Part shown: one piece after another, positions 3,563 to 24,654 of the stretch
How the letters are laid out: every line of letters starts with the position of its first letter
How positions within the stretch are numbered: the stretch's first letter is position 1
Source of the DNA: an uncultured Oligoflexia bacterium
GTDB lineage: Bacteria; Bdellovibrionota; UBA1018; UBA6935
Direction: 5' to 3'
NCBI GenBank assembly: GCA_964013565.1
Contig: CAXGWU010000008.1
Coordinates: 30,950-62,949, forward strand
Length of the DNA: 32,000 nt
Translations under genes and position numbers: made by a program
The notes under the pieces: generated by a model
Told to the model about the DNA's origin: nothing
The model's database searches: none
The model's input: the letters and a program-made list of their open reading frames with translations, nothing else

Positions 3563-4570
3563 TCACCACCGTAAAAGAGCAGATCCATAAGTGAGTCCAG
3601 CTCCAAAAACGTCAAAGAGTACGAGGTCTCCTCGTTTTATTTTTCCTGTTTTTACTGCTTCAGCAAAAGCTGTAGGAACCGTTGCAGCAGAGGTATTGCC
3701 AAATCGATCGACATTGACGATGACCTTGTCCATTGGAACATTTAATTTTTTAGCAACATTTTCAATGATTCGTAAATTCGCTTGATGAGGGACAATCCAA
3801 TCAACGTCTTCGACAGAGAATTCGTTCGATTCAATCGCTTTTTTTGCGTAGGTCGCAAGGGTATTACAAGCTACTTTGAAAATCTCGCGTCCTTTCATTT
3901 TCATTTTGTGTTCTTGTCTTTCGTATACTTCCGGAGTGACTTCTTGGTTGGATCCTCCTGCAGGAATATAGAAGAGGTCCCAAAGGTTTCCGTCCGAGCC
4001 GACGTGTGTAGAGAAGAGACGGGAGGATTGATCTGAATGAGTCCTTTGAACCACAGCCGCTCCAGCACCATCACCAAAAAGAATTGAAGAAGTTCGGTCT
4101 CCCCAATTGAGATATGGACTGAGAACCTCTCCACCAATCACTAAAATGGTTTTGTGTGCTCCTGTTTTAATCATTTGGTCTGCGAGGTGAAGTCCATAGA
4201 CGAAGCCAGAACAGGCGGCATTGAGATCAAGTGCACCTGCTTGTAAAGCACCTAGCTTTTTCTGTAACCAGCAAGCAGTACTAGGAACTAAAGTATCTGG
4301 AGAACAGGTGGCGTAGAGAATTAAGTCAATGTCTTGAGGCTGAATATTCGCCATTTCCATCGCTTCAAGAGAAGCACGTAACCCAAGACTAGAATTTCTC
4401 TCATCCTCTTTTAGAGAAGAAATTCTTCGCTCACAGATACCGGTACGTTCACGAATCCATTGATCGTTTGTCTCAGCTCCGTGTTGAGCAATTTTTTTTG
4501 CGAGTTCTTCGTTGGTAACAATACCTTTGGGATGGGCAGATCCTATCCCTGAAATCCAAGAATGATGCAC
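3563..4570 (-). CDS. fabH: Beta-ketoacyl-ACP synthase III
   Basis: Catalytic triad contexts AACSGF (Cys), VPHQANLRII (His) and GNTSAAT (Asn). 335 aa. Confidence 0.9.
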   Translation of the reverse strand: MHHSWISGIGSAHPKGIVTNEELAKKIAQHGAETNDQWIRERTGICERRISSLKEDERNSSLGLRASLEAMEMANIQPQDIDLILYATCSPDTLVPSTACWLQKKLGALQAGALDLNAACSGFVYGLHLADQMIKTGAHKTILVIGGEVLSPYLNWGDRTSSILFGDGAGAAVVQRTHSDQSSRLFSTHVGSDGNLWDLFYIPAGGSNQEVTPEVYERQEHKMKMKGREIFKVACNTLATYAKKAIESNEFSVEDVDWIVPHQANLRIIENVAKKLNVPMDKVIVNVDRFGNTSAATVPTAFAEAVKTGKIKRGDLVLFDVFGAGLTYGSALLRW

Positions 4571-10688: not shown

Positions 10689-11311
10689 GTCTTTCTCGAG
10701 ATGGCATTGCAAAAAGAATAGCTCAAGAGTTGGAAGATGGCTTCTATGTCAATTTAGGAATCGGAATACCTACATTGGTTGCAAACTATATTCCCGAAGG
10801 AATGGATGTGACCCTGCAAAGTGAAAATGGGCTTCTTGGAATCGGTCCTTTTCCAACAGAAGATCAAGTCGATCCTGATTTAATTAACGCTGGAAAAGAA
10901 ACCATTACGACTGTTCCTGGTTCTGTCTTTTTTTCAAGTGCTGAATCATTTGCAATGATTCGAGGAGGACATGTTGATTTGACTGTTCTTGGTGCAATGG
11001 AAGTTTCTGAGTCTGGAGATATTGCAAACTGGATGATTCCTGGAAAAGTAGTCAAAGGAATGGGGGGAGCAATGGATCTAGTTGCTGGAGCAAAAAGAGT
11101 CATCGTCGCCATGGCTCATTGTTCAAAATCTGGAAAGAGCAAAATTTTAAAAGAATGCACGCTTCCTCTTACTGGTAGAGGTGTCGTGGATCATATTGTC
11201 ACTGATCTTGCAGTCTTTGATGTAGTTCCTGGTGGACTAAAGCTCGTAGAGTGTGCTCCCGGAGTAGAAGAATCTTATGTGAGGTCAGTGACTGAGGCAA
11301 CTATTCTCTAA
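10685..11311 (+). CDS. scoB: 3-oxoacid CoA-transferase subunit B
   Basis: LQSENGLLG (catalytic Glu motif) and [13 protein letters not shown] overlap with subunit A. Confidence 0.9.
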
Positions 11312-12353
11312 AAGGAGTCCATGTTTCTACGGGTTCTTTTTTATGATGAATCGTTTTAATTTGCAGTAGATCATGTTTGATTTTTGAAAGCGGATTTTTA
11401 ACACTATATCCCTCGATGGATTCGATTTGAGTGGGAATGGGTGGTGCAGTCTCGTTGGGTGTGAATATTCTTTTTAGGAAGGCTTGTATTCGATGAGGAG
11501 TCGTTTTTGTTTCTACGACAGAATGGATTCCTGTTTGAATGACTGGAAGAGGGAGATATTGAGAAAACTCAAACCATTTTCTTTTTTGTTCTGCTTTTCT
11601 AAATGCTCCCCTTAATTCGGTATAAGAATTTTTTCCTAAAAATAAAGAGGTGAGATGGACAGGAATACGAGCTGTTTCTATTTTTTCTCTTTCAGAGAAA
11701 AGATGAAACTCAGGTAATAAAATCATCGGAAAAATTCCTGCTAATTTAAGATAGACTCGGTCTACATTCCAGCTCTGAAAGGAAGGATATCCATGTTCTT
11801 GGTGAACTGAATTGATCCAAGCAAGACTGAGTGAAACAAGAGAGAGAATGACATGGGTTTTTCCATAGCTAAGGCGAGGAATGGTATTTTCGTCTTCTAA
11901 GTCTAATTCTAAAGTGGGTTTAAGTTTCTCTATAATTCCTTCAATGGTAAAAAGTCCCATTTTTAAATCACGTTTTTTTGATCGAGGAACTTCTTGAGAG
12001 TTTTCTAAGGTTTGTAGTTGATGAAAAACTTTTTTGAATTCAATAAGAAGTTGTCGTTGAAAAGGCGCAAATGCAGGACCTAGTGATGTTTTAAAAGCCT
12101 GATCGAGTCTTCCGTCTTTTATAAAATGACTGATCATAGAAGCCCATAGATCAAATCGAATCGAGCTTTTTGGATGAGCTGTGTTTTTATAACGATCGGT
12201 CATTTTTTCCATTCGCAACAGGATTTCTCTTCTTTCAGTTTCATTAACGAGTTCTGGAAAGCTCATTTCAAAGACACTTTCACACGCAGGTCCATGTGCG
12301 TAACTTTTGTGAAGAGATATCGATAGGATGAGAGAAATAAAAAAAATCTTCAT
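11301..12353 (-). CDS. Secreted hypothetical protein, second gene of a tandem pair (weak paralog of the upstream gene)
   Basis: 350 aa with signal peptide [23 protein letters not shown]-coupled to the 12350-13543 ORF. The post-signal Cys and the segment [21 protein letters not shown] resemble HIEIWKRMVQRFITNELDQN in the neighbour. Confidence 0.55.
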
Positions 12354-13543
12354 TGAATATCTCCATATTTTAAAATTAGATGAGATTTTTTAACGGCTTG
12401 ATTGATCTTTTGAGAGGGCTTAAATAACCACTCATACGCTCGTTGTGATAAGGGTTCATCATTTGAGGGAATCCATTTTTTTGGAATTGCATTTTTAATT
12501 TGGAGACGACTAATAAATTGAGGAGTAAATAATTTAGGATTTAAATCTCCTGTGAAGAATGAGTAATGTTGTTTACCTTCATGACGAAAGATTGCAAGTC
12601 GAAGCATCAGTCGAAGTTGATCTTGTTCAGAGAGTTTGTTTTTTTCTGAATCTAAGACTTCAAACCACTCTAAAAAAAGATCAATTTGAGTAAGTAGAGT
12701 ACTCATTTCTTTCAGAGTAAAATAGTCTTTTCTTATGTTTCCATAGAAAAAGTTGAGGTTATTATTGTGTAAAAAGTCATGTTCTAAATTTTCTGATGGT
12801 CGAGCAAGGGTTCCATCGACTTGTTTTGTTGTGCTTTCTACAGCGTTCACGTTTAATAACGTAGGAGTCATATGATAAAAATCGACCCAGGAAATGTTTT
12901 GACGAATGATTGGGATTTGAAGAAAGGGAAAGTTTTCTATTATTCGTTCTTTTTTTCTTATCTTTTTATCTTTATAAAATCCAAAAATATATCGAATTTC
13001 AGGATGATTCAATCGATAGTTTCTTGCACTTTCGTTTTCAAAATGAATTAAAAAGTCTGATAGATGGGTATAAAACTCTGAAAGAGTATGAATTAAAAAA
13101 TAAGTAATCTTTTTTTCTTCTTTTATTCTAAAAATCCATTGATGCGTTTGATCTTCAATATCCTCAATATCATTTAAAATTTGTAGTTTTATTTTATCTT
13201 TCTGATTTGCTTTAAAAAAAACTTTTAACTCATTGAGTTTAGATAATGCTTGTTTGAGAGCAGAATCAATTTTTTTTATTTTATCTTTCCATTCTAAGAC
13301 AAGTACGTGAGGAATGGTGTTTTGATCCAGTTCATTTGTAATAAATCTTTGAACCATTCGTTTCCAAATTTCAATGTGAGTTTTCTGTGATGATGGAGAT
13401 AAGGTTTTCATCGATTGAGTCACTGTTTCTAGTTTCTCAAGGAGGTGTGATTGTGAAGCCTGTTGATACAAGGAGGCGCACGTCTGGGAGTGAGAGTAAG
13501 CACTCACAGAGAAAAGAAAAATAAAAATAAGAAGACCACGCAT
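12350..13543 (-). CDS. Secreted hypothetical protein, first gene of the tandem pair
   Basis: 397 aa with signal peptide MRGLLIFIFLFSVSAYS. Very AT-rich coding sequence. I recognise no family. Confidence 0.55.
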   Translation of the reverse strand: MRGLLIFIFLFSVSAYSHSQTCASLYQQASQSHLLEKLETVTQSMKTLSPSSQKTHIEIWKRMVQRFITNELDQNTIPHVLVLEWKDKIKKIDSALKQALSKLNELKVFFKANQKDKIKLQILNDIEDIEDQTHQWIFRIKEEKKITYFLIHTLSEFYTHLSDFLIHFENESARNYRLNHPEIRYIFGFYKDKKIRKKERIIENFPFLQIPIIRQNISWVDFYHMTPTLLNVNAVESTTKQVDGTLARPSENLEHDFLHNNNLNFFYGNIRKDYFTLKEMSTLLTQIDLFLEWFEVLDSEKNKLSEQDQLRLMLRLAIFRHEGKQHYSFFTGDLNPKLFTPQFISRLQIKNAIPKKWIPSNDEPLSQRAYEWLFKPSQKINQAVKKSHLILKYGDIQ

Positions 13544-14542: not shown

Positions 14543-16342
14543 ATGAAATCAAAATACCTTCTAGTTGGAATGAGTCTTTTAGTGGGATGTCAGACGGGGA
14601 AACCTCTTTACAGAGAAACTAAAGCGAAAAAAGAACATTTAAAATTTATCAAACAGCTGAGCTCCGATCCTAAGGTGGATTTTGATCGGAGTAAAATTTT
14701 GCCAGTGGTAGGAACCCGGGGAATGGTTGCTGTTGATAGTCGAGAAGCGGCGCTCTGGGGTGCGGAAATTTTAAGAAGAGGCGGAAATGCGATCGATGCA
14801 GCTGTCGCTACTGGATGGATGATGGCTGTAACAAGACCACAGCATGGAACTATTGGAGGAGGGGGATTTATGATTTATTGTCCTGCTTCTTTTAAAAAAG
14901 GAAAGTGTCGAGCTTTGAATTTTAGAGAAAAAGCTCCACAAAAAGCGCATCGGAATGTCTATGTGGTTGATGGAAAACCAAGAACAGATCTCTCTCAGAA
15001 TCATCCAATGGCTTCCGGAGTACCTGGAATCGTTGACGGGTACTTTTATGCCTTAAAAAAATGGGGAACTCGATCCCATTCGGAATTGATGAAAAAACCC
15101 ATTGAAGTCGCAGAAAACGGTTTTGTATTTACGGGTGAACTTGAAAGTTCCGCCTTAGATCGATGGTCTTCGATGAATCCTGAAGCAAAGAAAATTTTTG
15201 GATGTAATCACGGAAAAGTTTCATCAAAGCCCTGTCGTCCAGGTAAAAAAGTGATTCAAAAAGACTTATCTCGAGTTTTAAAAACAATTTCTCAAAAAGG
15301 AAGAAAGGGTTTTTATGAGGGATGGGTTGCTCAAAAAATCGTAAAAGGACTTCGGAGAAAAGGCGGGATGATGTCTTTAAAGGACTTGCAGTCTTACCGT
15401 TCAGTTGAGATGGATCCGATTCAAGGAGATTATTTAGGGTATCAAATTTTTTCAATGCCTCCTCCATCTGCCGGTGGTGCAATGATTGCTCAAATGTTTC
15501 AGTATGTGAAACATGCGGATGAAAATAAGGCATTTGAGAACGGAGATCTTTCCTCTCAGACGGTGCACGCTCTTAGTCATGCCATGAATTTATCTTTTGC
15601 AGATCGTGCTGTACATTTTGGAGATCCGGATTTTTATCCGGTTCCTTTAAAAAAGTTAATGGATCCGGCTTATCTGAAAGAAAGATGGGAATCGACATAT
15701 CATCCAAATTCAGCTTATTTTCCACAAGCAGGTGGGATCCATGTCAGTGAAGGACAGCACACGACTCACTTTGCTGTGATTGATAAAAAAGGAAATGCAG
15801 TGAGCATTACCATCACTCAAAACAATAACTATGGATCAGGGTTTGTTCCTCCCGGAACGGGAATTGTAATGAATAATGAAATGGATGATTTTAGTATTCA
15901 ACCAGGAACCCCCAATCTCTTCGGTTTGGTCGGATCGGAAGCAAATGCAGTCGCTCCAGAAAAAAGACCTCTGAGTTCGATGTCTCCAACGATTGTTACC
16001 GACTCTCAAGGGCGTCCTCGAATTGCTCTGGGAGCAGCAGGAGGACCCACGATTACCACTTCTGTGTTTTTAACATTGGTTCGAAGAATGAGACTTGGAC
16101 TCACTCTGCCTGATGCAATGATGGCAACTCGTTTTCATCAACAGTGGAAGCCTAAAACTCTTTTTGTTGAAAGAAATGGATTCTCAGATGAGACTTTAGG
16201 TCGACTTCAACAGATTGGGTATTCTCTTCGTGAGAAAGGTCACATTGCTCGGATGCATGCCATTGAAAGATATCCAGACGGAACTCTTTGGGGAGTCTCA
16301 GATCGTCGTTCAGAAGGAGCAGCGGTTCCTGAGCCGTTATGA
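14543..16342 (+). CDS. ggt: Gamma-glutamyltranspeptidase, lipoprotein form
   Basis: Lipobox LLVGC. Autoprocessing/nucleophile site GQHTTHFAVIDKKGNAVS. PLSSMSPT and GAAGGPTI motifs. 599 aa. Confidence 0.9.
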   Translation: MKSKYLLVGMSLLVGCQTGKPLYRETKAKKEHLKFIKQLSSDPKVDFDRSKILPVVGTRGMVAVDSREAALWGAEILRRGGNAIDAAVATGWMMAVTRPQHGTIGGGGFMIYCPASFKKGKCRALNFREKAPQKAHRNVYVVDGKPRTDLSQNHPMASGVPGIVDGYFYALKKWGTRSHSELMKKPIEVAENGFVFTGELESSALDRWSSMNPEAKKIFGCNHGKVSSKPCRPGKKVIQKDLSRVLKTISQKGRKGFYEGWVAQKIVKGLRRKGGMMSLKDLQSYRSVEMDPIQGDYLGYQIFSMPPPSAGGAMIAQMFQYVKHADENKAFENGDLSSQTVHALSHAMNLSFADRAVHFGDPDFYPVPLKKLMDPAYLKERWESTYHPNSAYFPQAGGIHVSEGQHTTHFAVIDKKGNAVSITITQNNNYGSGFVPPGTGIVMNNEMDDFSIQPGTPNLFGLVGSEANAVAPEKRPLSSMSPTIVTDSQGRPRIALGAAGGPTITTSVFLTLVRRMRLGLTLPDAMMATRFHQQWKPKTLFVERNGFSDETLGRLQQIGYSLREKGHIARMHAIERYPDGTLWGVSDRRSEGAAVPEPL

Positions 16343-17596
16343 GCCGTTTTGAACTCCTTCGGGGGAGGCTTCTACTGTCGCAGTTTCATTTCCAATGAGT
16401 CGCGCAACACCATTGAGTCGAATCAGATAACCAGTCACTAAGTTCATTTCAGCAGGATAATCAACTGAATATTCTGTTGTTTTTCCTAAGTAAGTCCATC
16501 CGTTGGTTGCACTGGGTGGAACAATAAATGTACCGTCTGCAGTGTGCTTTAAAACTCGAATCGAATCTACTTGAGGAGGGTAATCGATTTTTAAGATCAC
16601 TCGTCTCATTTTAAGGATTTGATCAGTTAAGTGTCCTCTCATATCGTCTAGAACTGCGTTAATCGGGGTAGAGCAAACATCGTAACTTCTTCCGTTAAAG
16701 TGGGATGACATTTGAATGTATCGATTACCTCTTCTTGAATTTGAACCAAGGCAATTACTTTGTGTATTGGCTGCAACCGCTGAATAAAATCGAAGCTTGT
16801 TTGAGTCCCCTTTGTTCTTTGCAAACTGAGTTGTGTAATACTCAAAAGAAGAAGCTGAAGTGCAGTCTTCAGCGCTACATCCATCATACGGAACTTGTTC
16901 ACAGGGAGCCATCGGTCCTCCAGGAACTCCTGGATATTGAGGACAGAGAGTCACTCCTGAAGTATCTTCTCCATTACTGACAGCAAGGACAACGGTCAAA
17001 GCATCTTGCCTTAACATTCGGTAAATTGCGCTTCCGGAATTCAGTCCAGCATCAGTGGTGTAAGGAGGACGTTGAGAATGGAGACCTCTTCGAATCATTT
17101 CAAGTCCTGGCTCTTGAGCTCCAGCAGCATAATTAATATCCCCTGAATTTAAAAAATGAGAATAGTTTGATGCCGTTCTAAAATAAGTGGGGTTAACTCG
17201 AGTGTAGTTACCGTTTACAAATCCAAAAGGGTCTGCGCCTGGAAAAGGAGGGATCCATCCACCAATGGTGGTCCAGTTCCCATCATACCGTGAAGCAGCG
17301 ATCTGAGTAATTGATCGTTCTTGAGTGAGTTTGACTGTTGCAAAACGATAGTCCCACTTCTCGGCATCTAAGCTTTGTAAAAATCCTCGTACTTGAGTGT
17401 CGATTTCTCCATAAGCACTCGTGATTGATCCAGAGTCATCCGTAGCTAAGATGACATCGACTTTTGGGGGAACAGCAAGGAGGCCCGCAGCGGATTGTTC
17501 GTTTTCTCCAATTCCAACTCGAATTGCTTCTTGTCCACATCCAGATAAAAAAATAATCAATGTGAGCACACTAAAAAACTTGTTTGAATTCTTCAT
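16337..17596 (-). CDS. Lipoprotein with an N-terminal VWA-like (MIDAS DxSxS) domain
   Basis: Lipobox FLSGC. DVILATDDSGSI matches the VWA MIDAS start. Cys-rich and beta-rich remainder. Its stop overlaps the ggt stop (TTATGA, 16337-16342). Confidence 0.65.
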   Translation of the reverse strand: MKNSNKFFSVLTLIIFLSGCGQEAIRVGIGENEQSAAGLLAVPPKVDVILATDDSGSITSAYGEIDTQVRGFLQSLDAEKWDYRFATVKLTQERSITQIAASRYDGNWTTIGGWIPPFPGADPFGFVNGNYTRVNPTYFRTASNYSHFLNSGDINYAAGAQEPGLEMIRRGLHSQRPPYTTDAGLNSGSAIYRMLRQDALTVVLAVSNGEDTSGVTLCPQYPGVPGGPMAPCEQVPYDGCSAEDCTSASSFEYYTTQFAKNKGDSNKLRFYSAVAANTQSNCLGSNSRRGNRYIQMSSHFNGRSYDVCSTPINAVLDDMRGHLTDQILKMRRVILKIDYPPQVDSIRVLKHTADGTFIVPPSATNGWTYLGKTTEYSVDYPAEMNLVTGYLIRLNGVARLIGNETATVEASPEGVQNGS

Positions 17597-17663
17597 TCAC
17601 TTCTTCCTCGGTAAACCACTTTCACAGGGGGCTCTGAGAATAAGAGAGCCTCATGAGAGATAT

Positions 17664-17679
17664 CGCAAAAGGAGTGCCA
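17664..17679 (-). promoter_or_regulatory. Sigma-54 (RpoN) -24/-12 promoter core upstream of the VWA lipoprotein gene
   Basis: The minus strand reads tTGGCAC-tcctt-TTGCg, exact at all 10 fixed consensus positions. The GC element is ~69 nt upstream of ATG 17596 (predicted TSS near 17653). Confidence 0.65.
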
Positions 17680-17690
17680 ATCGTGACACA

Positions 17691-17698
17691 GGGGGGGG
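17691..17698. repeat. G8/C8 homopolymer tract in the divergent control region
   Basis: gggggggg at 17691-17698, 12 nt upstream of the -24 element of the sigma-54 promoter and ~118 nt upstream of the GTG at 17816. Confidence 0.9.
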
Positions 17699-17815
17699 AG
17701 AATGAAATTCAACTATTTCAATAAGTTAAAATGTTTGTTGAGAAACAAAAACAAAGGGAGTGAGAGAGAATCTCACAAGTGTCAATAAGTTTGTCACTCT
17801 AAGAAAACCGTTGAT

Positions 17816-19012
17816 GTGAATCTTTTGACGAATGAGGAGCAAAAATTAAAGAGAAATATTCTGGATTCCGAACAGCTCTATGAGATGAAAGTATTGGATT
17901 CATTCAAATCACTGTTAGGAAAGTTTAAAAAGGAAAAGTCTGAAGACTCTACAGACGCTCCTGTATCTAAAAAACAAAAAATAAAAAAGGTTTTTTGGGT
18001 GACTGGAAGTTTTGTGGTAGCGATTACTTCTGGGGTTTTTGTTTATTCAATGTTCTCTAAAACTCCTCCTACCGTTTCTTCTGAAGAGCATGATGAGCTT
18101 TTAGTAGATCATCGCGGGGATCATTCAAGAGACCTTGCTTCTCATAAAGAACAGCACCCCACTTTAATGGGGCGTTTTGCGAATGCCTTTCTTTCTATTC
18201 AGTCCAAAGTGAATATGATGCAAACAGCTTTGGAAGAAAATCGTAAACTTCAAATTGAGAATATGAACCTGAGACGTTGGGCAGAGGGGATGCGATACGA
18301 GTGTACGGCACAGACCTCTGAAAGTGAAACTCATCGGTTAGGAACTCGTTTGAATCATGAGACAGGGATGAGAATTGGGAGAGCAATTGCGAGTATTCCT
18401 TATACAGCTCCAGGTCATTTATTACCTGAACAGCTTCAAACGTTAGCAGTTTCTTATTTTAAAGCTTCAGAGTTTGAAAAATCTGCAGTGATTTTTTCAT
18501 TTTTAACGGGGATGGACGAAAACGACGACTTTAAAACGACTAAAGAGTTTGTGATGACTGCTGTTTCTTGGTATCGGTTAGATAATTTTAAAATAGCTGA
18601 CTATTATCTAGAACAAGCGTTAAAAACAGAGACTACAAAAGAAAATTTAAAATATAAAGCTCATGCTCGTTTGTGGAAAGCACTCGTCATGGAGAAGCTC
18701 GATGATCATGAACAATCTCAGTTTTGGTTAAGAGAGTTGATTGATTATCATCCAAGATCGGTTGAGTCTTCTTGGGTCAATTCCTTTGCGTCTGGAAAAC
18801 GATCTCCTGCAAGTCATTCAGAATCTAAGAAAGAAGAGCATTCAAAAGATGCACATCCGTCAGAGGAGAAAAAAATAGTCACTGAAGAGCGGCATATGGA
18901 GCCTGACTCTCATCATAGTCACCAAGAAAAGATGAACACTCATTCTTCACATGAAGTGAAGGAGAGTTCAAATTCACACCACGGAGAAGGTCATGAAAGT
19001 GCTCATCACTAA
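17816..19012 (+). CDS. Membrane-anchored TPR-like protein with a His-rich C-terminal tail
   Basis: GTG start. One TM segment (VFWVTGSFVVAITSGVFVYSMF), a coiled-coil segment (ENRKLQIENMNLRRW), then TPR-like helices (WYRLDNFKIADYYLEQALK). The last ~70 aa carry many His (SHHSHQEK...SHHGEGHESAHH). Confidence 0.55.
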   Translation: MNLLTNEEQKLKRNILDSEQLYEMKVLDSFKSLLGKFKKEKSEDSTDAPVSKKQKIKKVFWVTGSFVVAITSGVFVYSMFSKTPPTVSSEEHDELLVDHRGDHSRDLASHKEQHPTLMGRFANAFLSIQSKVNMMQTALEENRKLQIENMNLRRWAEGMRYECTAQTSESETHRLGTRLNHETGMRIGRAIASIPYTAPGHLLPEQLQTLAVSYFKASEFEKSAVIFSFLTGMDENDDFKTTKEFVMTAVSWYRLDNFKIADYYLEQALKTETTKENLKYKAHARLWKALVMEKLDDHEQSQFWLRELIDYHPRSVESSWVNSFASGKRSPASHSESKKEEHSKDAHPSEEKKIVTEERHMEPDSHHSHQEKMNTHSSHEVKESSNSHHGEGHESAHH

Positions 19013-20042
19013 TGTAATTTGTTTTCTTATTGGGGTGAGTGTTTACGCTTCTGAACCTTTGACCCCCCAGCAAAGAAAAGTGAACTGTGCAACTCTTAAA
19101 GCATTTCAGGGAGATGTTCAGATTTTAGATGCTGGTCGGCAAAATTTAATTGATACTGATGTGAATCAATCGATTCCATGTGGAGGATGGATTTCTGTCC
19201 GAAAGGGTTCAGCGATTCTTCATCATCGACAAGGATTTGATCTTAAGCTTTCTCCTCAAACTTTTATTGAAATTTTTGATAATGAAAAAAACGTTCATAA
19301 AACTTCGGATGACCATGTAATTGTCTACAAGGGAAAGGTTTATGTCGTTTCGAAAGGTCACTCTGGAGAGGTTAGGCTTCTTTCTCCAAATGCTCGTATG
19401 CGTATTGAAACTGGAGAAGGAATTTTTCTTTATAGTCAATGGAACGAAGAGTCTCAGCTTTTAATGTTGAAAAATACCGCTACTATTGAGAATCGATATG
19501 CGGGTGATGTAAAAATTAAAGTTTCTCCAGGGGAAGCTTCTTCTTTGAATTTTAAAAACATGAGAGTTGTCCCTTCTGATCCAAAAGCAGTTCAAGTTTC
19601 TTCGATTAAAGATCAGCTTCTTGACTTGCCTCTAGATTTTGAAGAGATGGAAACCGCTCTTAATGTTGTGAAAAAAAGAAGTCAAAGAAAGTTTGCAGCG
19701 AAACTTTACGAAAGAAAAAAAGGAAAACGTTTTTCTTGGGCAGCTCAGAAAAAAGGTCCAAAAGACTTTACTATGAAATATGGGAGACAAAGAGTTATTA
19801 AAAAAGACCGCTATGCGGAGAATTTATTAATTCAGAGACTGACTGGAGGAAGAAAAGATGGAAAAGAATATATCTATCCTTCAGTTGAGCATGGAAGTAA
19901 AAAGACAAAAATATCGAGACTACCTGCTTCCGTAAAGGTAAAAGATCCTTTAGAGCGAATTAAAAGAAAAGATCAAATTGAAGAAAGTGAAGAAAAGAAA
20001 AGGCTGATGAAAGAATTATCAGCAATTAAGTTTGAACGTTAA
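18993..20042 (+). CDS. Secreted FecR-domain-like protein with a Lys-rich C-terminus
   Basis: Signal peptide MKVLITNVICFLIGVSVYA. GDVQILDAG...GGWISVRKGSAILHHRQGFDLKLSPQTFIEI resembles the FecR/LipL45-type beta-sandwich pattern. Overlaps the upstream gene by 20 nt. Confidence 0.45.
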   Translation: MKVLITNVICFLIGVSVYASEPLTPQQRKVNCATLKAFQGDVQILDAGRQNLIDTDVNQSIPCGGWISVRKGSAILHHRQGFDLKLSPQTFIEIFDNEKNVHKTSDDHVIVYKGKVYVVSKGHSGEVRLLSPNARMRIETGEGIFLYSQWNEESQLLMLKNTATIENRYAGDVKIKVSPGEASSLNFKNMRVVPSDPKAVQVSSIKDQLLDLPLDFEEMETALNVVKKRSQRKFAAKLYERKKGKRFSWAAQKKGPKDFTMKYGRQRVIKKDRYAENLLIQRLTGGRKDGKEYIYPSVEHGSKKTKISRLPASVKVKDPLERIKRKDQIEESEEKKRLMKELSAIKFER

Positions 20043-20066
20043 AAAAGCCCTCAAGGAGAGAGAGCA

Positions 20067-20639
20067 ATGAAAATAAAAAAACTGTCTTTATGGATAGGAA
20101 TAGTTCTATTATTTGAATCAGTTTCTGCCAGTGCAGGAATATTCGAGTATTCTGTCGGATTCTCTTTTTATAAAAGTCGATTTTCTGAAGAGTCATTTAA
20201 TTGGACACGCGCTTGGAGAACGTCTGTAGGGTACCATTTTACAGATTTTTCAGGGATAGAGCTTTCGTTTCAAGATTTAACCAATCGAACAAAAGTTTTT
20301 AACTCCGAAGATATTATGACTCATGATTTAGTTTATAGTTTGAATTGGATTCAACAGTTTGTTCCCAGTGACTGGATCTTTAGACCTTATGGAAAATTAG
20401 GATTAGGGCAGACAAACCGTCAAGTTGAAGGAACGGTGATTGACTCAGGAACCTCACAGAGTATTGCTTTTAGGCAAAAGATCAATGCTGTGACTATTGT
20501 CATGAGTCTGGGTTTTAAGTTATTCTTACTTAAAAATATTGCGATTCGAAATGAATTTAGCAGTCAATTAGTAAAAGGAAGCATCCGAAATTGGGACGAC
20601 AATATCAACTTCACCATTGGGGCATCGGTCTATTTTTAG
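20067..20639 (+). CDS. Small outer-membrane beta-barrel protein (OmpA-N/OmpX-like)
   Basis: Signal peptide ending SASA, alternating aromatic/hydrophilic strands, and a C-terminal GASVYF (terminal Phe OMP signature). Confidence 0.6.
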   Translation: MKIKKLSLWIGIVLLFESVSASAGIFEYSVGFSFYKSRFSEESFNWTRAWRTSVGYHFTDFSGIELSFQDLTNRTKVFNSEDIMTHDLVYSLNWIQQFVPSDWIFRPYGKLGLGQTNRQVEGTVIDSGTSQSIAFRQKINAVTIVMSLGFKLFLLKNIAIRNEFSSQLVKGSIRNWDDNINFTIGASVYF

Positions 20640-21655
20640 TTTTTCAGACCTCTTGCACAACAACTCGTTATTTAATTCAAGCAACACATGGACAGTTTGC
20701 TTTGATGAATCGAGCTCGTCCTATTAATGAAGTTTTAAAAGATGAAAAAACTTCTCCACGTATTCGAAACTTTTTAAAAGAAGTTCCTCGAATTAAGCAA
20801 GCGAGTGAAGACTTTGGATTAAAGCCTACTTCAAATTATAGAGATTATGTTCAGCTTGATCGAGATTCTGCTAATTATGTCGTTTCTGCTTCAGAACCTC
20901 TTCGATTTAAGCCCATGATTTGGAGTTTTCCGATTGTGGGTTCGTTTTCTTATTTAGGGTGGTTTAGTTTAGAAGATGCGAAAAGTTTTGCTGAAGACAT
21001 AAAGAAGGATTTTCCTGAGTGGGATGTCTCTATTCGAGGAGCGGGCGCTTATTCGACTTTAGGTTGGTTTACAGATCCCATTCTTTCAACGATGTTTTCT
21101 CAAGGAGAATATGCGATGGGAGATCTTGTGAACGTTGTTTTTCATGAATCAGTTCATGCGACTCTTTATATGAACGATCAATCTTATTTTAATGAAAGCA
21201 TCGCTTCTTTTGCTGCTGATCATATGACTCCACAGTACCTTTCTCGAAGATACGGACAAGATTCAAAAGAGTTTACTTCATATCAAAAACAACAAAAAAA
21301 AAGGCAGATGATCAAAAATCAATTATATGAAGCTTACCGTTCTTTAGAAGCTCTCTATAGTAGCTCTAAAAATGATGAAGAAAAAAAAGAAGAAAAGTTA
21401 AACATTTTAGAGCAATTAAAAAATAAATTAAAAAGTAAGAAAAGTTATAATAATGCTTCTTTAATTCAATATCGAACCTATGGAGTAGGTATGGATTCTT
21501 TTGAGAAGTTGTTTGATACTTGTCAAAAAAAATGGAAAAACTTCTGGCGAGCAATGCATTCTCTAAAAGAAAGTTCTTTTGAGAAAAAGCAAATGGAAGA
21601 CTTTAAGTCTGTGATTCATCCTTATATAATGAATGGGTGTCAAAAAATAAAGTAA
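20591..21655 (+). CDS. Putative zinc aminopeptidase-family lipoprotein (HExxH; DUF-type 'putative aminopeptidase' family)
   Basis: VVFHESVHATLY carries the HExxH motif. The N-terminal C-TTTRYLIQATHGQFALMNRARPINEVL resembles this family's conserved start. TTG start at 20591 with AAGGAAG 9 nt upstream. Overlaps the OMP gene by 49 nt, so the start is uncertain. Confidence 0.6.
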   Translation: MGRQYQLHHWGIGLFLVFQTSCTTTRYLIQATHGQFALMNRARPINEVLKDEKTSPRIRNFLKEVPRIKQASEDFGLKPTSNYRDYVQLDRDSANYVVSASEPLRFKPMIWSFPIVGSFSYLGWFSLEDAKSFAEDIKKDFPEWDVSIRGAGAYSTLGWFTDPILSTMFSQGEYAMGDLVNVVFHESVHATLYMNDQSYFNESIASFAADHMTPQYLSRRYGQDSKEFTSYQKQQKKRQMIKNQLYEAYRSLEALYSSSKNDEEKKEEKLNILEQLKNKLKSKKSYNNASLIQYRTYGVGMDSFEKLFDTCQKKWKNFWRAMHSLKESSFEKKQMEDFKSVIHPYIMNGCQKIK

Positions 21656-21687
21656 ACAGGGCAGACCTGACCATCAGACCTACCCTG
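21641..21687 (-). terminator. Rho-independent terminator for the minus-strand lipoprotein gene
   Basis: The minus strand reads CAGGGTAGGTCTGA-tgg-TCAGGTCTGCCCTG. This is a ~14-bp stem including 3 G-U pairs, so it is strand-specific. It is followed by TTTACTTTATTTTTT and lies 53 nt after the stop at 21740. The U-tract overlaps the 3' end of the convergent peptidase gene. Confidence 0.5.
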
Positions 21688-21739
21688 TGAGGATGAGATA
21701 GCACTCTTTAAAAACTAATCCTAAAATCAGTATTTAAAC

Positions 21740-22480
21740 TTATAAAGGGGTATGAGCGTCCGTTTGGATATGAATCGTCGCTGCGTTTGGCAGTGTGTCT
21801 ACGATAGTTCCATAACGTAGGCTTCGGTAAGCACATCGGTCAGATCCAGCAAGGTTGGTGAATCCACTTGGATAGAAGTTTACAATATAGTTAATATTAC
21901 ACTGATAATTTGTTCTAAATTGATCGACGACCACCTTGATATTCGATCCGCCTCCTGCTCCTAGAGTAGAACTAAAATCAAAAACCGCTTCTGTTGGATA
22001 GTCAGCACAAGTATTTGCCCATGGAGATCCAAGGTAGTTTCCATAACCAGTCACCTGATAAGCAGTTCCATCAGAAACATTTGGGGATTTTAGAGTTACG
22101 GTATGACTTTGACCATTCACCGTTACACGGTACTGATAACATCCGACCTGCTTGTCGGCTCCACCAGAGGTTCCAGTAAAATTAATGGTTCCACTTCCTG
22201 CAGTGATCTTTACTTTGAATGTACTGTCGCTTGAGAACCCTGGGGAAGTCCATTTTGCACCAACAGCAACCCCTTTAATATTGTTAAGCGAATAAGAAGC
22301 AGGTGATAGACCTCCTCCTGTATCTCCACCTCCTGGATCCGTAGGAACGCTTCCAGAGCCTCCAGGGAGGCTATTTTGGTCAGTGGAGCCGAGTTCGGAT
22401 CGAACGGCTCCTCCACATGCCGATAAGGCGATTGTGAGTAATAAAGTAACGATTGGGGTCTTTGTTTTTTTAAAATTCAT
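21740..22480 (-). CDS. Lipoprotein with a Gly-rich linker and a Cys-containing beta-rich domain (hypothetical)
   Basis: ATG at 22480 (MNFKKTKTPIVTLLLTIALSACGG; lipobox LSAC) with AGAGAGGA Shine-Dalgarno upstream. The track's longer start at 22516 is a TTG without an SD. Linker is GGSGSVPTDPGGGDTGGG. Four Cys in the mature domain. Confidence 0.65.
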   Translation of the reverse strand: MNFKKTKTPIVTLLLTIALSACGGAVRSELGSTDQNSLPGGSGSVPTDPGGGDTGGGLSPASYSLNNIKGVAVGAKWTSPGFSSDSTFKVKITAGSGTINFTGTSGGADKQVGCYQYRVTVNGQSHTVTLKSPNVSDGTAYQVTGYGNYLGSPWANTCADYPTEAVFDFSSTLGAGGGSNIKVVVDQFRTNYQCNINYIVNFYPSGFTNLAGSDRCAYRSLRYGTIVDTLPNAATIHIQTDAHTPL

Positions 22481-22583
22481 TTTGCTATCCTCTCTCTTAT
22501 GAGTTGGTTTCCTCAAATCAACTCATTTTCATCTTTCTGTGATGATCTCTCTTTGCTGTCCTTGCCTCTTGAAGGATGTAAAT

Positions 22584-22599
22584 TGCAACCTAGGTGCCA
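22584..22599 (-). promoter_or_regulatory. Sigma-54 -24/-12 promoter core upstream of the Gly-rich lipoprotein gene
   Basis: The minus strand reads aTGGCAC-ctagg-TTGCa, an exact consensus core. Predicted TSS is near 22573, ~93 nt upstream of ATG 22480. Confidence 0.65.
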
Positions 22600-22795
22600 T
22601 ATGACGCACTTGATTTAAAAAAAAGAGATCAAATGCTAGCAATGTAAGGAGAATCTTTATAAGATCAGGACGTTAGTTGGCGGTTTTTTGACAAAAATTC
22701 GTCAGCAAGGAGAGAGAGAGCCTGATTTTTTGTAAATAAATTTGAAGAGCTCTCAATCACCTGTCCAAAGATTAGACACTCTGAGGGGGGTTCTT

Positions 22796-24145
22796 TTGAA
22801 AAAATCATTTGTTCTAGATACCAATGTCATTCTTTTTGATCCGCAAGCAATTCATAAGTTTGGAAGCAATGAAATAGTGATTCCGATGGTCGTTATTGAG
22901 GAAGTGGATCGATTTAAGAGAGATATGAGTGAAAATGGTCGTCATGCACGTCAATTCTCTCGAGCGATGGACGGTTTAAGAGCAAGTGGAGATTTAGCTA
23001 AAGGAGTACAGCTTCCTAATGGTGGGAGTCTGGTTGTTGAGCTGGGAACGTCTGAGTCTATTCTTCCGAGTGAATTGGATATGCATAAGGCAGACAATCG
23101 AATTCTTGCAGTGATTCTTACCTTAAAGAAAGAAAATCCGAGACGACCAGTTGTTTTTGTTACAAAAGATATCAATTTAAGAATCAAAGCAGATGCCCTT
23201 GGAATGCAGGCTCAGGACTACGAGCCTGAAGATCGAGAGCCGGATGAGCTTTATGCTGGTCATCGAACACTTCAAGTCGATGGGGCTTTAGTTGATGAGT
23301 TTTATTCAAATAAACGCTTGTCTTTAAGTGAAGAAATTTGTGAACAAAACTCGGTTAAAATGGCTCATATTTTACCGAACGAATATATGATCATTAAGGA
23401 CAGTGCAAATCCAACCCACACCGCTCTTGCACGATATTCGAAAGAGCTTGAATCCATGGTTCCAATTTATAAACCTGCTGAAGGATTATGGGGGATTTTC
23501 CCGAAAAACGTAGAACAAAGTTTTGCTGTAGATGCGTTGATGAATGATGACATTAAGTTGGTGAGTCTTTTAGGAATGGCCGGTACAGGAAAAACACTTC
23601 TTGCAATTGCTGCAGGACTTGTAAAAACAGTTGATGAAGGTTTTTATCATCGGCTTTTAGTGTCTCGACCTGTTTTTCCTTTAGGAAAAGATATTGGTTT
23701 TTTGCCTGGAGATATTGAAGAAAAGTTGAATCCATGGATGCAACCGATTTACGATAACATTGATTTTTTATTTGGAGCTACCGGATCTAAAGGAAGAAGA
23801 GGGGCAGGAAAAGGGGGCCAAGAGCTGATGAATCAAGGGCTCCTTCAAATTGAACCCTTAACTTATATTCGAGGTCGATCGATTCCCCAGCAGTACTTAA
23901 TTGTAGATGAGAGTCAGAACCTGACTCCACACGAGATTAAAACGATTGTGACTCGAGCTGGAGATGATACTAAAATCGTTCTTACTGGTGATAGTTATCA
24001 AATCGATAATCCATATGTAGATTCAAATAATAATGGATTAGTGTATTTGGTAGAACGTTTTAAAGCAGAATCAATTTCTGCTCATATTTCACTTAAAAAA
24101 GGAGAGCGTTCGAAACTATCAGAACTCGCCAGTCAGCTTCTCTAA
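22796..24145 (+). CDS. PhoH2-type protein: N-terminal PIN domain fused to a PhoH-like ATPase
   Basis: PIN motifs VLDTNVIL, EEVD, DNRIL and TKDINLRIKA. Walker A is GMAGTGKTLLA and Walker B is LIVDESQN. Preferred start is TTG 22796 (MKKSFVLDTNV) with GAGGGGGG 5 nt upstream. The track start TTG 22742 would add 18 aa. Confidence 0.85.
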   Translation: MKKSFVLDTNVILFDPQAIHKFGSNEIVIPMVVIEEVDRFKRDMSENGRHARQFSRAMDGLRASGDLAKGVQLPNGGSLVVELGTSESILPSELDMHKADNRILAVILTLKKENPRRPVVFVTKDINLRIKADALGMQAQDYEPEDREPDELYAGHRTLQVDGALVDEFYSNKRLSLSEEICEQNSVKMAHILPNEYMIIKDSANPTHTALARYSKELESMVPIYKPAEGLWGIFPKNVEQSFAVDALMNDDIKLVSLLGMAGTGKTLLAIAAGLVKTVDEGFYHRLLVSRPVFPLGKDIGFLPGDIEEKLNPWMQPIYDNIDFLFGATGSKGRRGAGKGGQELMNQGLLQIEPLTYIRGRSIPQQYLIVDESQNLTPHEIKTIVTRAGDDTKIVLTGDSYQIDNPYVDSNNNGLVYLVERFKAESISAHISLKKGERSKLSELASQLL

Positions 24146-24450
24146 CGAGAAGCTGCATTGGTCATTTCTTCGAGCTCAAAATGAAGGTGTCTCAGATAGG
24201 AGCGACTCAAAATTTGAAGTTCTTCTGTTTCTGCACTTTCGGATAAAAATTCAAAAAGAATTTTTCCTCGAACAATGAGATCAATTGTGAGTTCACCGAT
24301 TTTTGAACGTTCTTCTTGAAATCGAACCATTTCCTCTAAGAGAGCGACTTTGTCCATTTGGGCGACACGGTCGTAGTACCCCGGGTTGGCTAACGAGGCT
24401 TTTTTGATTTCACGGATGGCTTGCAACGAGATGATGTTTAAGTTCGTCAT
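24142..24450 (-). CDS. Small helical hypothetical protein (102 aa)
   Basis: ORF with ATG at 24450 and a sigma-54 core immediately upstream. The stop overlaps the PhoH2 stop by 4 nt (convergent). I recognise no family. Confidence 0.45.
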   Translation of the reverse strand: MTNLNIISLQAIREIKKASLANPGYYDRVAQMDKVALLEEMVRFQEERSKIGELTIDLIVRGKILFEFLSESAETEELQILSRSYLRHLHFELEEMTNAASR

Positions 24451-24465
24451 GTCAGGCGCCTTATG

Positions 24466-24481
24466 AGCAACTCATGTGCCA
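24466..24481 (-). promoter_or_regulatory. Sigma-54 -24/-12 promoter core upstream of the 102-aa ORF
   Basis: The minus strand reads tTGGCAC-atgag-TTGCt, an exact core preceded by an A7 tract. The GC element is only ~17 nt from ATG 24450, implying a ~5-nt leader. Confidence 0.55.
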
Positions 24482-24654
24482 ACTTTTTTTAAAAGACACT
24501 TCAGAAAAATACTTTGATTTTAAGAAGTTCTGAGTGTGGTTTCACTTTGACTCTGGCTAGCTTTTTAGGAGGTGTCTAAGGTGTGGGCGAATTGAAAGGT
24601 TCCCGTAAATATAGTTGATGTGGATTAAAGAGACATAGGTAAGGACATACAGGC

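Follow-up and report, generated by a model that had tools for sequence, protein, structure and literature searches.

Promoter cores and genes of the locus

We analysed a 32-kb stretch of DNA (hereafter the window) from an uncultured marine Oligoflexia bacterium, in which three minus-strand genes, coding for a 419-aa lipoprotein, a 246-aa lipoprotein and a 102-aa cytoplasmic protein, are each preceded by an exact copy of the core of sigma-54 promoters, TGGCAC-N5-TTGC, and further upstream by a palindrome which may be the site of a common activator. The window is a piece of ordinary chromosome, with fab genes and genes for an enolase, a DegP-like protease, a thiolase, a CoA-transferase and a CpaF-like ATPase; no Rfam family was detected in it. 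Judged by its phoH-like gene, the nearest loci, with 71-77% PhoH identity, belong to metagenome-assembled genomes (MAGs) which bear the labels Oligoflexia, Bacteriovoracaceae or Bdellovibrionales; for Bdellovibrio proper the identity is about 58%. Proteins of the window occur in a Tara Oceans MAG which NCBI labels 'Bdellovibrionaceae bacterium'.

We searched both strands of the window for the pattern TGGCACNNNNNTTGC (TGGCAC-N5-TTGC). It occurs exactly three times, at the sites called P1, P2 and P3 in Table 1, while dinucleotide-preserving shuffles of the window contain 0.05 exact matches on average and none of 100 shuffles reaches three. All 10 fixed positions are present at the three sites, together with the spacing of 10 nt between the -24 GG and the -12 GC. 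Relaxing the pattern to TGGYAY-N5-TTGY revealed no other site in the window. Allowing one mismatch added two, 11197(+) and 31230(+), both within open reading frames (ORFs), the former having lost its GG. As read from the sequence and the list of ORFs, the three exact cores are all intergenic and each faces the ATG of a minus-strand gene, the gap from TTGC being 68 nt (ATG at 17596), 104 nt (ATG at 22480) and 16 nt (ATG at 24450). On the NCBI MAG contig PBMP01000081.1, which has the same sequence as the window here, independent gene calling gave the same starts. An earlier sequence-only reading of this DNA had claimed the three exact cores, their intergenic location and their orientation towards minus-strand start codons, and had seen by eye no exact copy within genes; the search on both strands bears out all of this.

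The transcription start sites (TSSs) given in Table 1 were placed by the usual rule, 12 nt downstream of the GC element. The leader predicted from P1 would be about 57 nt long and has a Shine-Dalgarno sequence, GAGGAAG, while the TSS predicted from P3 lies just about 5 nt ahead of the ATG at 24450. No good sigma-70-like promoter was seen upstream of the three target genes. In the leader predicted for the 246-aa gene, the sequence GAGUUGAUUUGAGGAAACCAACUC at 22499-22526 can form a stable hairpin (folding z = -2.35; 2 of 200 shuffles fold as well).

The gene of the 419-aa protein overlaps, at its 3' end, a convergent gamma-glutamyltranspeptidase gene. The protein has about 30 homologues with 31-40% identity. 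In an alignment of 30 homologues the lipobox LSGC, with the cysteine C20, is nearly invariant. The motif DxSxS of a metal-ion-dependent adhesion site (MIDAS) is D53-x-S55-x-S57, conserved as DxSGS with D53 invariant, and in the sequence GEDTS at 209-213 both D211 and S213 are invariant, T212 nearly so. The AlphaFold2 model, whose predicted local distance difference test (pLDDT) score is 85, has strands on the N-terminal side (30-42), a core in which beta and alpha elements alternate (45-322) and a beta region on the C-terminal side (326-410). Among PDB structures, Foldseek matches it best to integrin beta headpieces (E about 1e-8, probability 1.0). A PDB sequence search with the profile of the family gave nothing usable. 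The protein has no Pfam hit, and no member among the 30 matches the Pfam families of von Willebrand factor A (VWA) domains; the relationship to VWA is seen from motif and fold alone. In Bdellovibrio, Bd0875 and Bd1483 have a lipobox followed by a beta-rich domain, made of N- and C-terminal parts, into which a MIDAS domain is inserted; Bd0875 is required for efficient prey invasion, and bd0875 is induced about threefold upon mixing with prey (PMC11003981). The NCBIfam model NF052240, 'MIDAS family adhesin', the equivalog of Bd0875, matches the 419-aa protein with 22.5 bits against a cut-off of 700 and over residues 44-89 only. This match is weak, local and far below the cut-off, hence the protein is not an orthologue of Bd0875.

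The 246-aa protein contains 13% glycine and 5 cysteines, of which the four other than that of the lipobox are invariant in the family alignment. A word-index search retrieved the protein itself only; a full HMMER search retrieved 10 remote relatives of similar length, in the alignment of which the lipobox and the cysteine pattern are conserved. Searches of Pfam, NCBIfam and PDB sequences with this protein gave nothing usable. As for the 102-aa protein, it is devoid of signal peptide and has 42 homologues without annotation, with a mean column identity of 52%. Its ATG is the true start, because the N-terminal peptide NIISLQA... is conserved. Its AlphaFold2 model (pLDDT 87) has five helices. We obtained neither a significant PDB sequence match for the protein nor a significant Foldseek match for the model, and no Pfam family; the NCBIfam search gave nothing usable. 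The sequence-only reading, which spoke of a VWA lipoprotein, of a lipoprotein rich in glycine and cysteine and of a helical protein, was thus broadly right about the three genes.

Table 1. Features of the window and predicted promoters of homologous genes (L-numbers designate homologous loci fetched from other contigs; UAS, candidate upstream activator site)
Feature	Position or locus	Strand	Sequence	Remarks
419-aa lipoprotein	16337..17596	-		integrin-beta-like MIDAS (VWA) domain predicted to be inserted in a beta-sandwich; monocistronic
Predicted sigma-54 promoter P1	17665..17679	-	TGGCACtccttTTGC	exact match; predicted TSS near 17653
UAS1	17780..17796	.	TGACAAACTTATTGACA (minus-strand read)	score 12.6, third in window; 116 nt upstream of P1
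Intrinsic terminator-like hairpin after 246-aa gene	21656..21688	-		strong; 15-pair stem, then T-rich tail
246-aa lipoprotein	21740..22480	-		lipobox LSAC, Gly-rich linker, four conserved Cys; monocistronic
Predicted sigma-54 promoter P2	22585..22599	-	TGGCACctaggTTGC	exact match; predicted TSS near 22573, leader 93 nt
UAS2	22762..22778	.	TGTCCAAAGATTAGACA	score 20.4, best in window; 178 nt upstream of P2
102-aa cytoplasmic all-helical protein	24142..24450	-		3' end overlaps convergent phoH-like gene by 4 nt
Predicted sigma-54 promoter P3	24467..24481	-	TGGCACatgagTTGC	exact match; predicted TSS near 24455
Candidate UAS3	24573..24589	.	CGCCCACACCTTAGACA (minus-strand read)	score 13.2, second in window; 107 nt upstream of P3
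Alternative UAS3	24619-24635	.	TGTCTCTTTAATCCACA	153 nt upstream of P3
102-family promoter	L007 (GC-rich genome)		CTGGCACctgccTTGCT	clear
102-family promoter	L005		ATGGCACtttcaTTGCT	clear
102-family promoter	L008		ATGGCATtttctTTGCT	clear
102-family promoter	L094		ATGGCATtatgcTTGCT	clear
102-family promoter	L095		CTGGCATtggacTTGCT	clear
419-family promoter	L082		ATGGCATctggcTTGCT	
419-family promoter	L089/L090		CTGGCATcacctTTGCC	
419-family promoter	L091		CTGGCACctatcTTGCG	
419-family promoter	L092		TTGGCCTcggccTTGCT	
419-family promoter	L093		CTGGCATctcctTTGCG	
419-family promoter	L087/L088		TTGGCACtggctTGGCA	
419-family promoter	L085/L086		CTGGCACttggcTTGAA	more degenerate
419-family promoter	L083/L084		TCGGAATatggaTTGCA	weak

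Predicted promoters of the homologous genes

We compared the orthologous intergenic regions of relatives, a check which had been named beforehand, and found the promoter kept for all three gene families. Many of the genomes from which the loci were fetched differ strongly in G+C. Over the 24 sites collected, the base counts in the core are T24 G24 G24 C24 A19 Y24-N5-T21 T23 G24 C20, which means that neither the GG nor the G of GC varies (24/24). For the 419-aa family, a -24/-12 element is present just upstream of the gene in every fetched homologue locus; the proteins concerned are 31-40% identical and their genes occupy at least three different gene neighbourhoods. The 102-aa gene convergent with phoH is kept in 7 related loci, and homologues were taken from 2 further contigs. 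Besides the clear promoters of Table 1, this family has weaker ones, TGGCAT-N5-TTGT in L004 and L038 and one with a degenerate -12 element in L006. The homologue of L011 has no sigma-54 promoter, and a sigma-70-like TTGACT-N17-TATAAC is found in its place. For the 246-aa family, a first alignment being too divergent, we scanned metagenomes with a narrower sub-alignment and fetched four loci (L096-L099): all six family genes in them stand behind TGGC(A/C/T)(C/T)-N5-(T/C/A)TGC. In L007, a lipoprotein gene of the same superfamily, divergent from phoH as in the window, lies downstream of TGGCCCtatgcTTGC.

The frequency of such elements was estimated from about 1.5 Mb of fetched DNA, where we called sigma-54-like any site keeping GG and GC with at most one other mismatch. 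There were 130 of them on both strands, that is about 0.009 per upstream region of 200 nt. With such a background, the presence of promoters upstream of most members of three unrelated families cannot be due to chance. An exact core in the relative L051, falling within a coding sequence, is clearly a chance match. A small sigma-54 matrix was also built and then dropped, as its spacer columns were overfitted and it under-scored the exact sites.

The ATG of the 102-aa gene follows the -12 TTGC at a distance of just 15-17 nt in three cases, namely the window, L007 and L095. There the predicted leader is about 3-5 nt long, so that a nearly leaderless messenger devoid of Shine-Dalgarno sequence would be made from a sigma-54 promoter. 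The leaders of the same gene in L005, L008 and L094 are 45-80 nt long and have a Shine-Dalgarno sequence.

A palindrome upstream of the promoters

The sequence-only reading had reported no shared motif for an activator upstream of the three promoters. This is now superseded: a conserved palindrome, TGTCnAAAnTTTnGACA, is found upstream of all three, and it has counterparts in other loci. The consensus, drawn from 20 sites, is 17 bp long and has the form TGT-N11-ACA. It was discovered by a seed-and-best-match search, in which the best seed obtained de novo upstream of the 419-family promoters scored 93; no score above 85 was obtained from 20 shuffled sets. Motif discovery restricted to the three regions of the window gave nothing significant, and the palindrome emerged from the homologous loci only. 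It stands at -116 to -133 from the promoter in 7 homologous loci of the 419-aa family (for instance TGTCCAAGGTTTCGACA, TGTCTAAACTTTTGACG and TGTAAAAGCTTTTGACA).

We then trained a symmetric matrix on 7 sites, none of which comes from the window. The three best hits of this matrix in the entire window are those located upstream of P2, P3 and P1, in this order. Shuffled windows of 32 kb yield 1.5 hits scoring 12 or more and 0.005 scoring 20 or more. When each of the 7 loci (6.6-9.3 kb) was left out in turn, its site ranked first in six of them and second in the remaining one. UAS1 is located 20 nt ahead of the GTG start of a divergent gene at 17816 (g398), and UAS2 is located 18 nt ahead of the divergent phoH-like gene, whose start, a TTG at 22796, was read from the sequence and agrees with the 449-aa gene call on PBMP01000081.1. 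At the orthologous position in L007, the palindrome is 179 nt from the promoter, like UAS2. A second, imperfect palindrome, TGACAAAAATTCGTCA, was read by inspection, unscored, at 22690..22705; it is a 16-mer of the form TGAC-N8-GTCA, 91-106 nt upstream of P2. This distance is typical of the activator sites of the relatives, and the palindrome may be a second, weaker site.

In the 246-aa family, the palindrome precedes the promoter by 64-117 nt in L096-L099, and by 178-179 nt both in L007 and in the window. Tandem paralogues of this family exist in L096 (1516-2340 and 2341-3139) and L098 (2358-4154), and each of them has its own palindrome and its own sigma-54 promoter, about 105-117 nt apart. 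Copies of unequal quality occur in the 102-aa family: exact in L094 (TGTC-N9-GACA at -142), moderate in L005 (-167) and L006 (-127), and weak in L095 (-141). In L008, an 11-nt unit, GCCACGGCTAT, is repeated in a short tandem array about 115-150 nt upstream of the promoter of the 102-aa gene, with about five copies in all, one or two of them being 12-nt variants with an additional C. This array occupies the position where other loci have the activator palindrome.

The short form TGTC-N9-GACA with at most one mismatch is not enriched over the whole window (15 occurrences against 10.9 expected), which means that the signal resides in the position and in the fuller matrix. An exact copy of it, TGTCCATTTGGGCGACA, at 24351-24367, is within the coding sequence of the 102-aa protein, about 100 nt downstream of P3. 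Its score with the fuller matrix is low and it is probably there by chance. No match to the consensus of integration host factor (IHF) was found between the palindromes and the promoters.

Between the two lipoprotein genes lies a conserved operon of four genes, 17816-21655(+), coding for a 398-aa protein whose C-terminal tail is rich in His, a 349-aa protein of unknown function, a beta-barrel outer membrane protein and a PF10023 aminopeptidase. Because this arrangement recurs in L082 and L091, the operon may be functionally tied to the lipoproteins which flank it. In L082 the 246-family gene has the same syntenic position, in the order 246-family gene, aminopeptidase/outer membrane protein/two unknowns, 419-family gene. 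Elsewhere in the window, at 11301-13543(-), two adjacent genes for secreted proteins of 350 and 397 aa occupy the part with the lowest G+C (about 33%). They match no Pfam family, their mutual similarity is faint (E 0.016), and they may be lineage-specific or acquired.

Proposed activation of the three genes and comparison with known systems

Taken together, these sequences argue that the three sites are in all likelihood working sigma-54 promoters and that a single enhancer-binding protein probably activates them. We consider the dependence of the three genes on sigma-54 very likely; that one activator is common to the three promoters seems probable to us, with somewhat less assurance. We infer from sequence comparison that the palindrome is the activator site. 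As far as sequences can tell, the module made of promoter, palindrome and gene is kept for the three families in Bdellovibrionota-like metagenomic relatives. The earlier view, that a local sigma-54 regulon here comprises lineage-specific proteins, either of the surface or uncharacterised, is supported by the comparative evidence at all three sites. The proposed mechanism would be the following. RNA polymerase with sigma-54 would sit on TGGCAC-N5-TTGC as a closed complex, until an AAA+ enhancer-binding activator, encoded outside the window and bound to the palindrome about 105-180 bp upstream, would reach the polymerase by DNA looping and open the promoter by hydrolysing ATP. The three monocistronic genes would then be induced together, giving two surface lipoproteins, one integrin-like with a MIDAS and one containing cysteines, and a small cytoplasmic helical protein. 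A link with contact with prey is suggested solely by analogy with bd0875.

Several observations weigh against this mechanism. No RpoN box, no GAFTGA motif and no Walker A signature of an enhancer-binding protein was seen in the window or in the fetched loci, which agrees, for the window, with the earlier remark that rpoN and the activator lie outside it. We infer from lineage alone that both are present in this genome, rpoN being reported for Bacteriovorax marinus (PMC3526173) and, as bd0843, for B. bacteriovorus (PMC3464611). Sigma-54 promoters do not usually give a leader as short as the 5 nt or so predicted from P3. UAS3 is the weakest of the three UAS calls: the palindrome of P3 is only half good in the window, one half-site alone being good (score 11.6-13.2). 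Moreover, no convincing palindrome was found in four loci with a 102-aa homologue (L004, L007, L008 and L038). The distance from UAS to promoter varies from 64 to 178 nt, without helical phasing (median about 123 nt). Finally, UAS1 and UAS2 are so near to divergent start codons (18-20 nt) that they could equally serve those genes.

Some of these points are what would be expected if the promoters were genuine and the palindrome were not their common enhancer, but the operator of an ordinary helix-turn-helix regulator acting on the g398 operon and phoH, or on the same three genes; each promoter would then have an activator of its own, or an activator without specific site. The location of UAS1 and UAS2, the variable spacing and the weak or missing palindromes of several 102-aa loci go in this direction, and palindromes of the form TGT-N(10-11)-ACA serve other dimeric regulators too. 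We nevertheless consider such an operator improbable. The palindrome accompanies the promoter even where the neighbouring gene has changed (a PilZ/GYF gene in L087, L089 and L093), and each of the tandem paralogues of L096 and L098 has one about 115 nt upstream. The palindrome usually lies 100-180 nt upstream of the promoter, and its typical distance of 100-135 nt is that of classic enhancer sites. It is also found 60-200 nt upstream of 21 of the 130 sigma-54-like sites, and a mirrored control taken on the downstream side gives 1 of 130; the count of 21 is partly circular, 16 of these sites coming from the training set and 5 being new. It is less probable still that the promoter matches are due to chance or are evolutionary relics deprived of activity, for instance after a loss of rpoN. 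The lack of an RpoN box in the window and the chance match of L051 would fit such an explanation, which is opposed by the excess over the shuffles, by the intergenic location and correct orientation of all three sites, and by the conservation of the motif upstream of homologues across very different G+C; a relic would not hold 10 core positions out of 10 at three places. As the three sites are within 7 kb and on one strand, they could also have been copies of a dispersed repeat or mobile element containing the motif. This we regard as excluded for practical purposes: the repeat search finds no extended direct or inverted repeat linking the three regions, their flanks do not align beyond the two short motifs, and in other genomes these motifs go with particular gene families.

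Other genes might belong to the sigma-54 regulon proposed here. In Bdellovibrionales, sigma-54-type promoters are found ahead of orthologous genes for RpoE-like sigma factors of the extracytoplasmic function (ECF) type, in L021 at 2002(+) and in L026 at 3901-3915(+). The latter is exact, TGGCACcaagaTTGC; the former, TGGTATcggtcTTGC, has a good palindrome, TGTCAAATCTTAATACA, 160 nt upstream. A cascade from sigma-54 to an ECF sigma factor could thus exist in Bdellovibrionales. Two more candidate members are a 115-aa secreted protein, preceded by an exact core and a weak palindrome in L008 (19163-19177(-)), and a 307-aa protein of unknown function, preceded by TGGCACggcaaTAGC and the palindrome TGTAAAAAACTTTTACA in L035 (10819(-)). 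One may speculate, although we think it rather unlikely, that palindrome and promoter define a regulon of the entire clade of uncultured Bdellovibrionota-like bacteria, where one enhancer-binding protein would drive a set of surface lipoproteins, among them integrin-like MIDAS adhesins of the kind required by Bdellovibrio for invading prey, as well as a small cytoplasmic partner and, in Bdellovibrionales, the ECF sigma factor. If this were true, it would be the missing transcriptional switch for the remodelling of the cell surface on contact with prey.

Regulation in Bdellovibrio-like organisms is poorly mapped. In a genome-wide study of TSSs in Bdellovibrio, two thirds of the attack-phase promoters had a FliA motif, and no strong motif was found for the others (PMC3627812). 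In the literature we searched, no sigma-54 regulon is described for the phylum, nor did we find this regulon, its activator-site consensus or its targets; searches with the motif strings returned papers on NifA and CbrB only. The mechanism is standard sigma-54 biology and the content of the regulon is new, which means that the value of the locus lies in new content for an understudied predatory lineage and not in a new principle. It offers a concrete regulon to test, namely consensus sequences for the promoter and for the activator site, and three target families which are conserved, one of them sharing the architecture of an adhesin required for prey entry. Complete genomes can be scanned for further members with the two matrices, and the palindrome can serve as bait for the activator and then for the signal.

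Finally we must compare the locus with known systems. According to its model, the 419-aa protein resembles the class of Bd0875 and Bd1483 in architecture. The likeness comprises the N-terminal lipobox (Cys20 here, Cys22 in Bd0875), an acidic MIDAS residue about 150 residues past DxSxS, and the Bdellovibrionota lineage; the role in prey invasion belongs to Bd0875, to which our protein is likened by architecture. The modelled topology of an inserted domain is also that of integrin beta headpieces, where the beta-I domain lies within the hybrid domain. However, the sequence identity with them is about 10-13% and the template-modelling (TM) scores are just 0.3-0.37 over the full length, and the 419-aa protein is a bacterial lipoprotein without alpha-subunit partner.

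On the side of regulation, our palindrome, being TGT-N11-ACA, does not qualify as a classical NifA site, which is TGT-N10-ACA. In Desulfovibrio, recurrent motifs of enhancer-binding proteins have TGT/ACA half-sites 9, 11 or 12 bp apart (PMC4641369), so that the palindrome shares with them the outer TGT...ACA and, with one group, the separation of 11 bp; the inner C-n-AAA-n-TTT-n-G distinguishes it from the NifA and Desulfovibrio sites alike. The control by sigma-54 of genes for the cell exterior, including lipoproteins, is a recognised theme (PMC3162934). The Rrp2-RpoN-RpoS pathway of Borrelia likewise places the expression of surface lipoproteins under sigma-54 and an enhancer-binding protein, and the sigma-54-type promoters of ECF sigma genes in the Bdellovibrionales loci hint at a cascade as well. 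The lineages are unrelated, Rrp2 acts without a defined enhancer site, and in the window the lipoprotein genes would carry the sigma-54 promoters themselves. The closest likeness in layout is with canonical sigma-54 systems (glnAp2 with NtrC, nifH with NifA): the same TGGCAC-N5-TTGC, a palindrome 100-180 bp upstream, and single gene units, tightly gated, without obvious sigma-70 promoter. The differences are that P3 is so near to the ATG that its messenger would be nearly leaderless, and that the targets are lineage-specific lipoproteins and a helical protein instead of nitrogen or flagellar genes.

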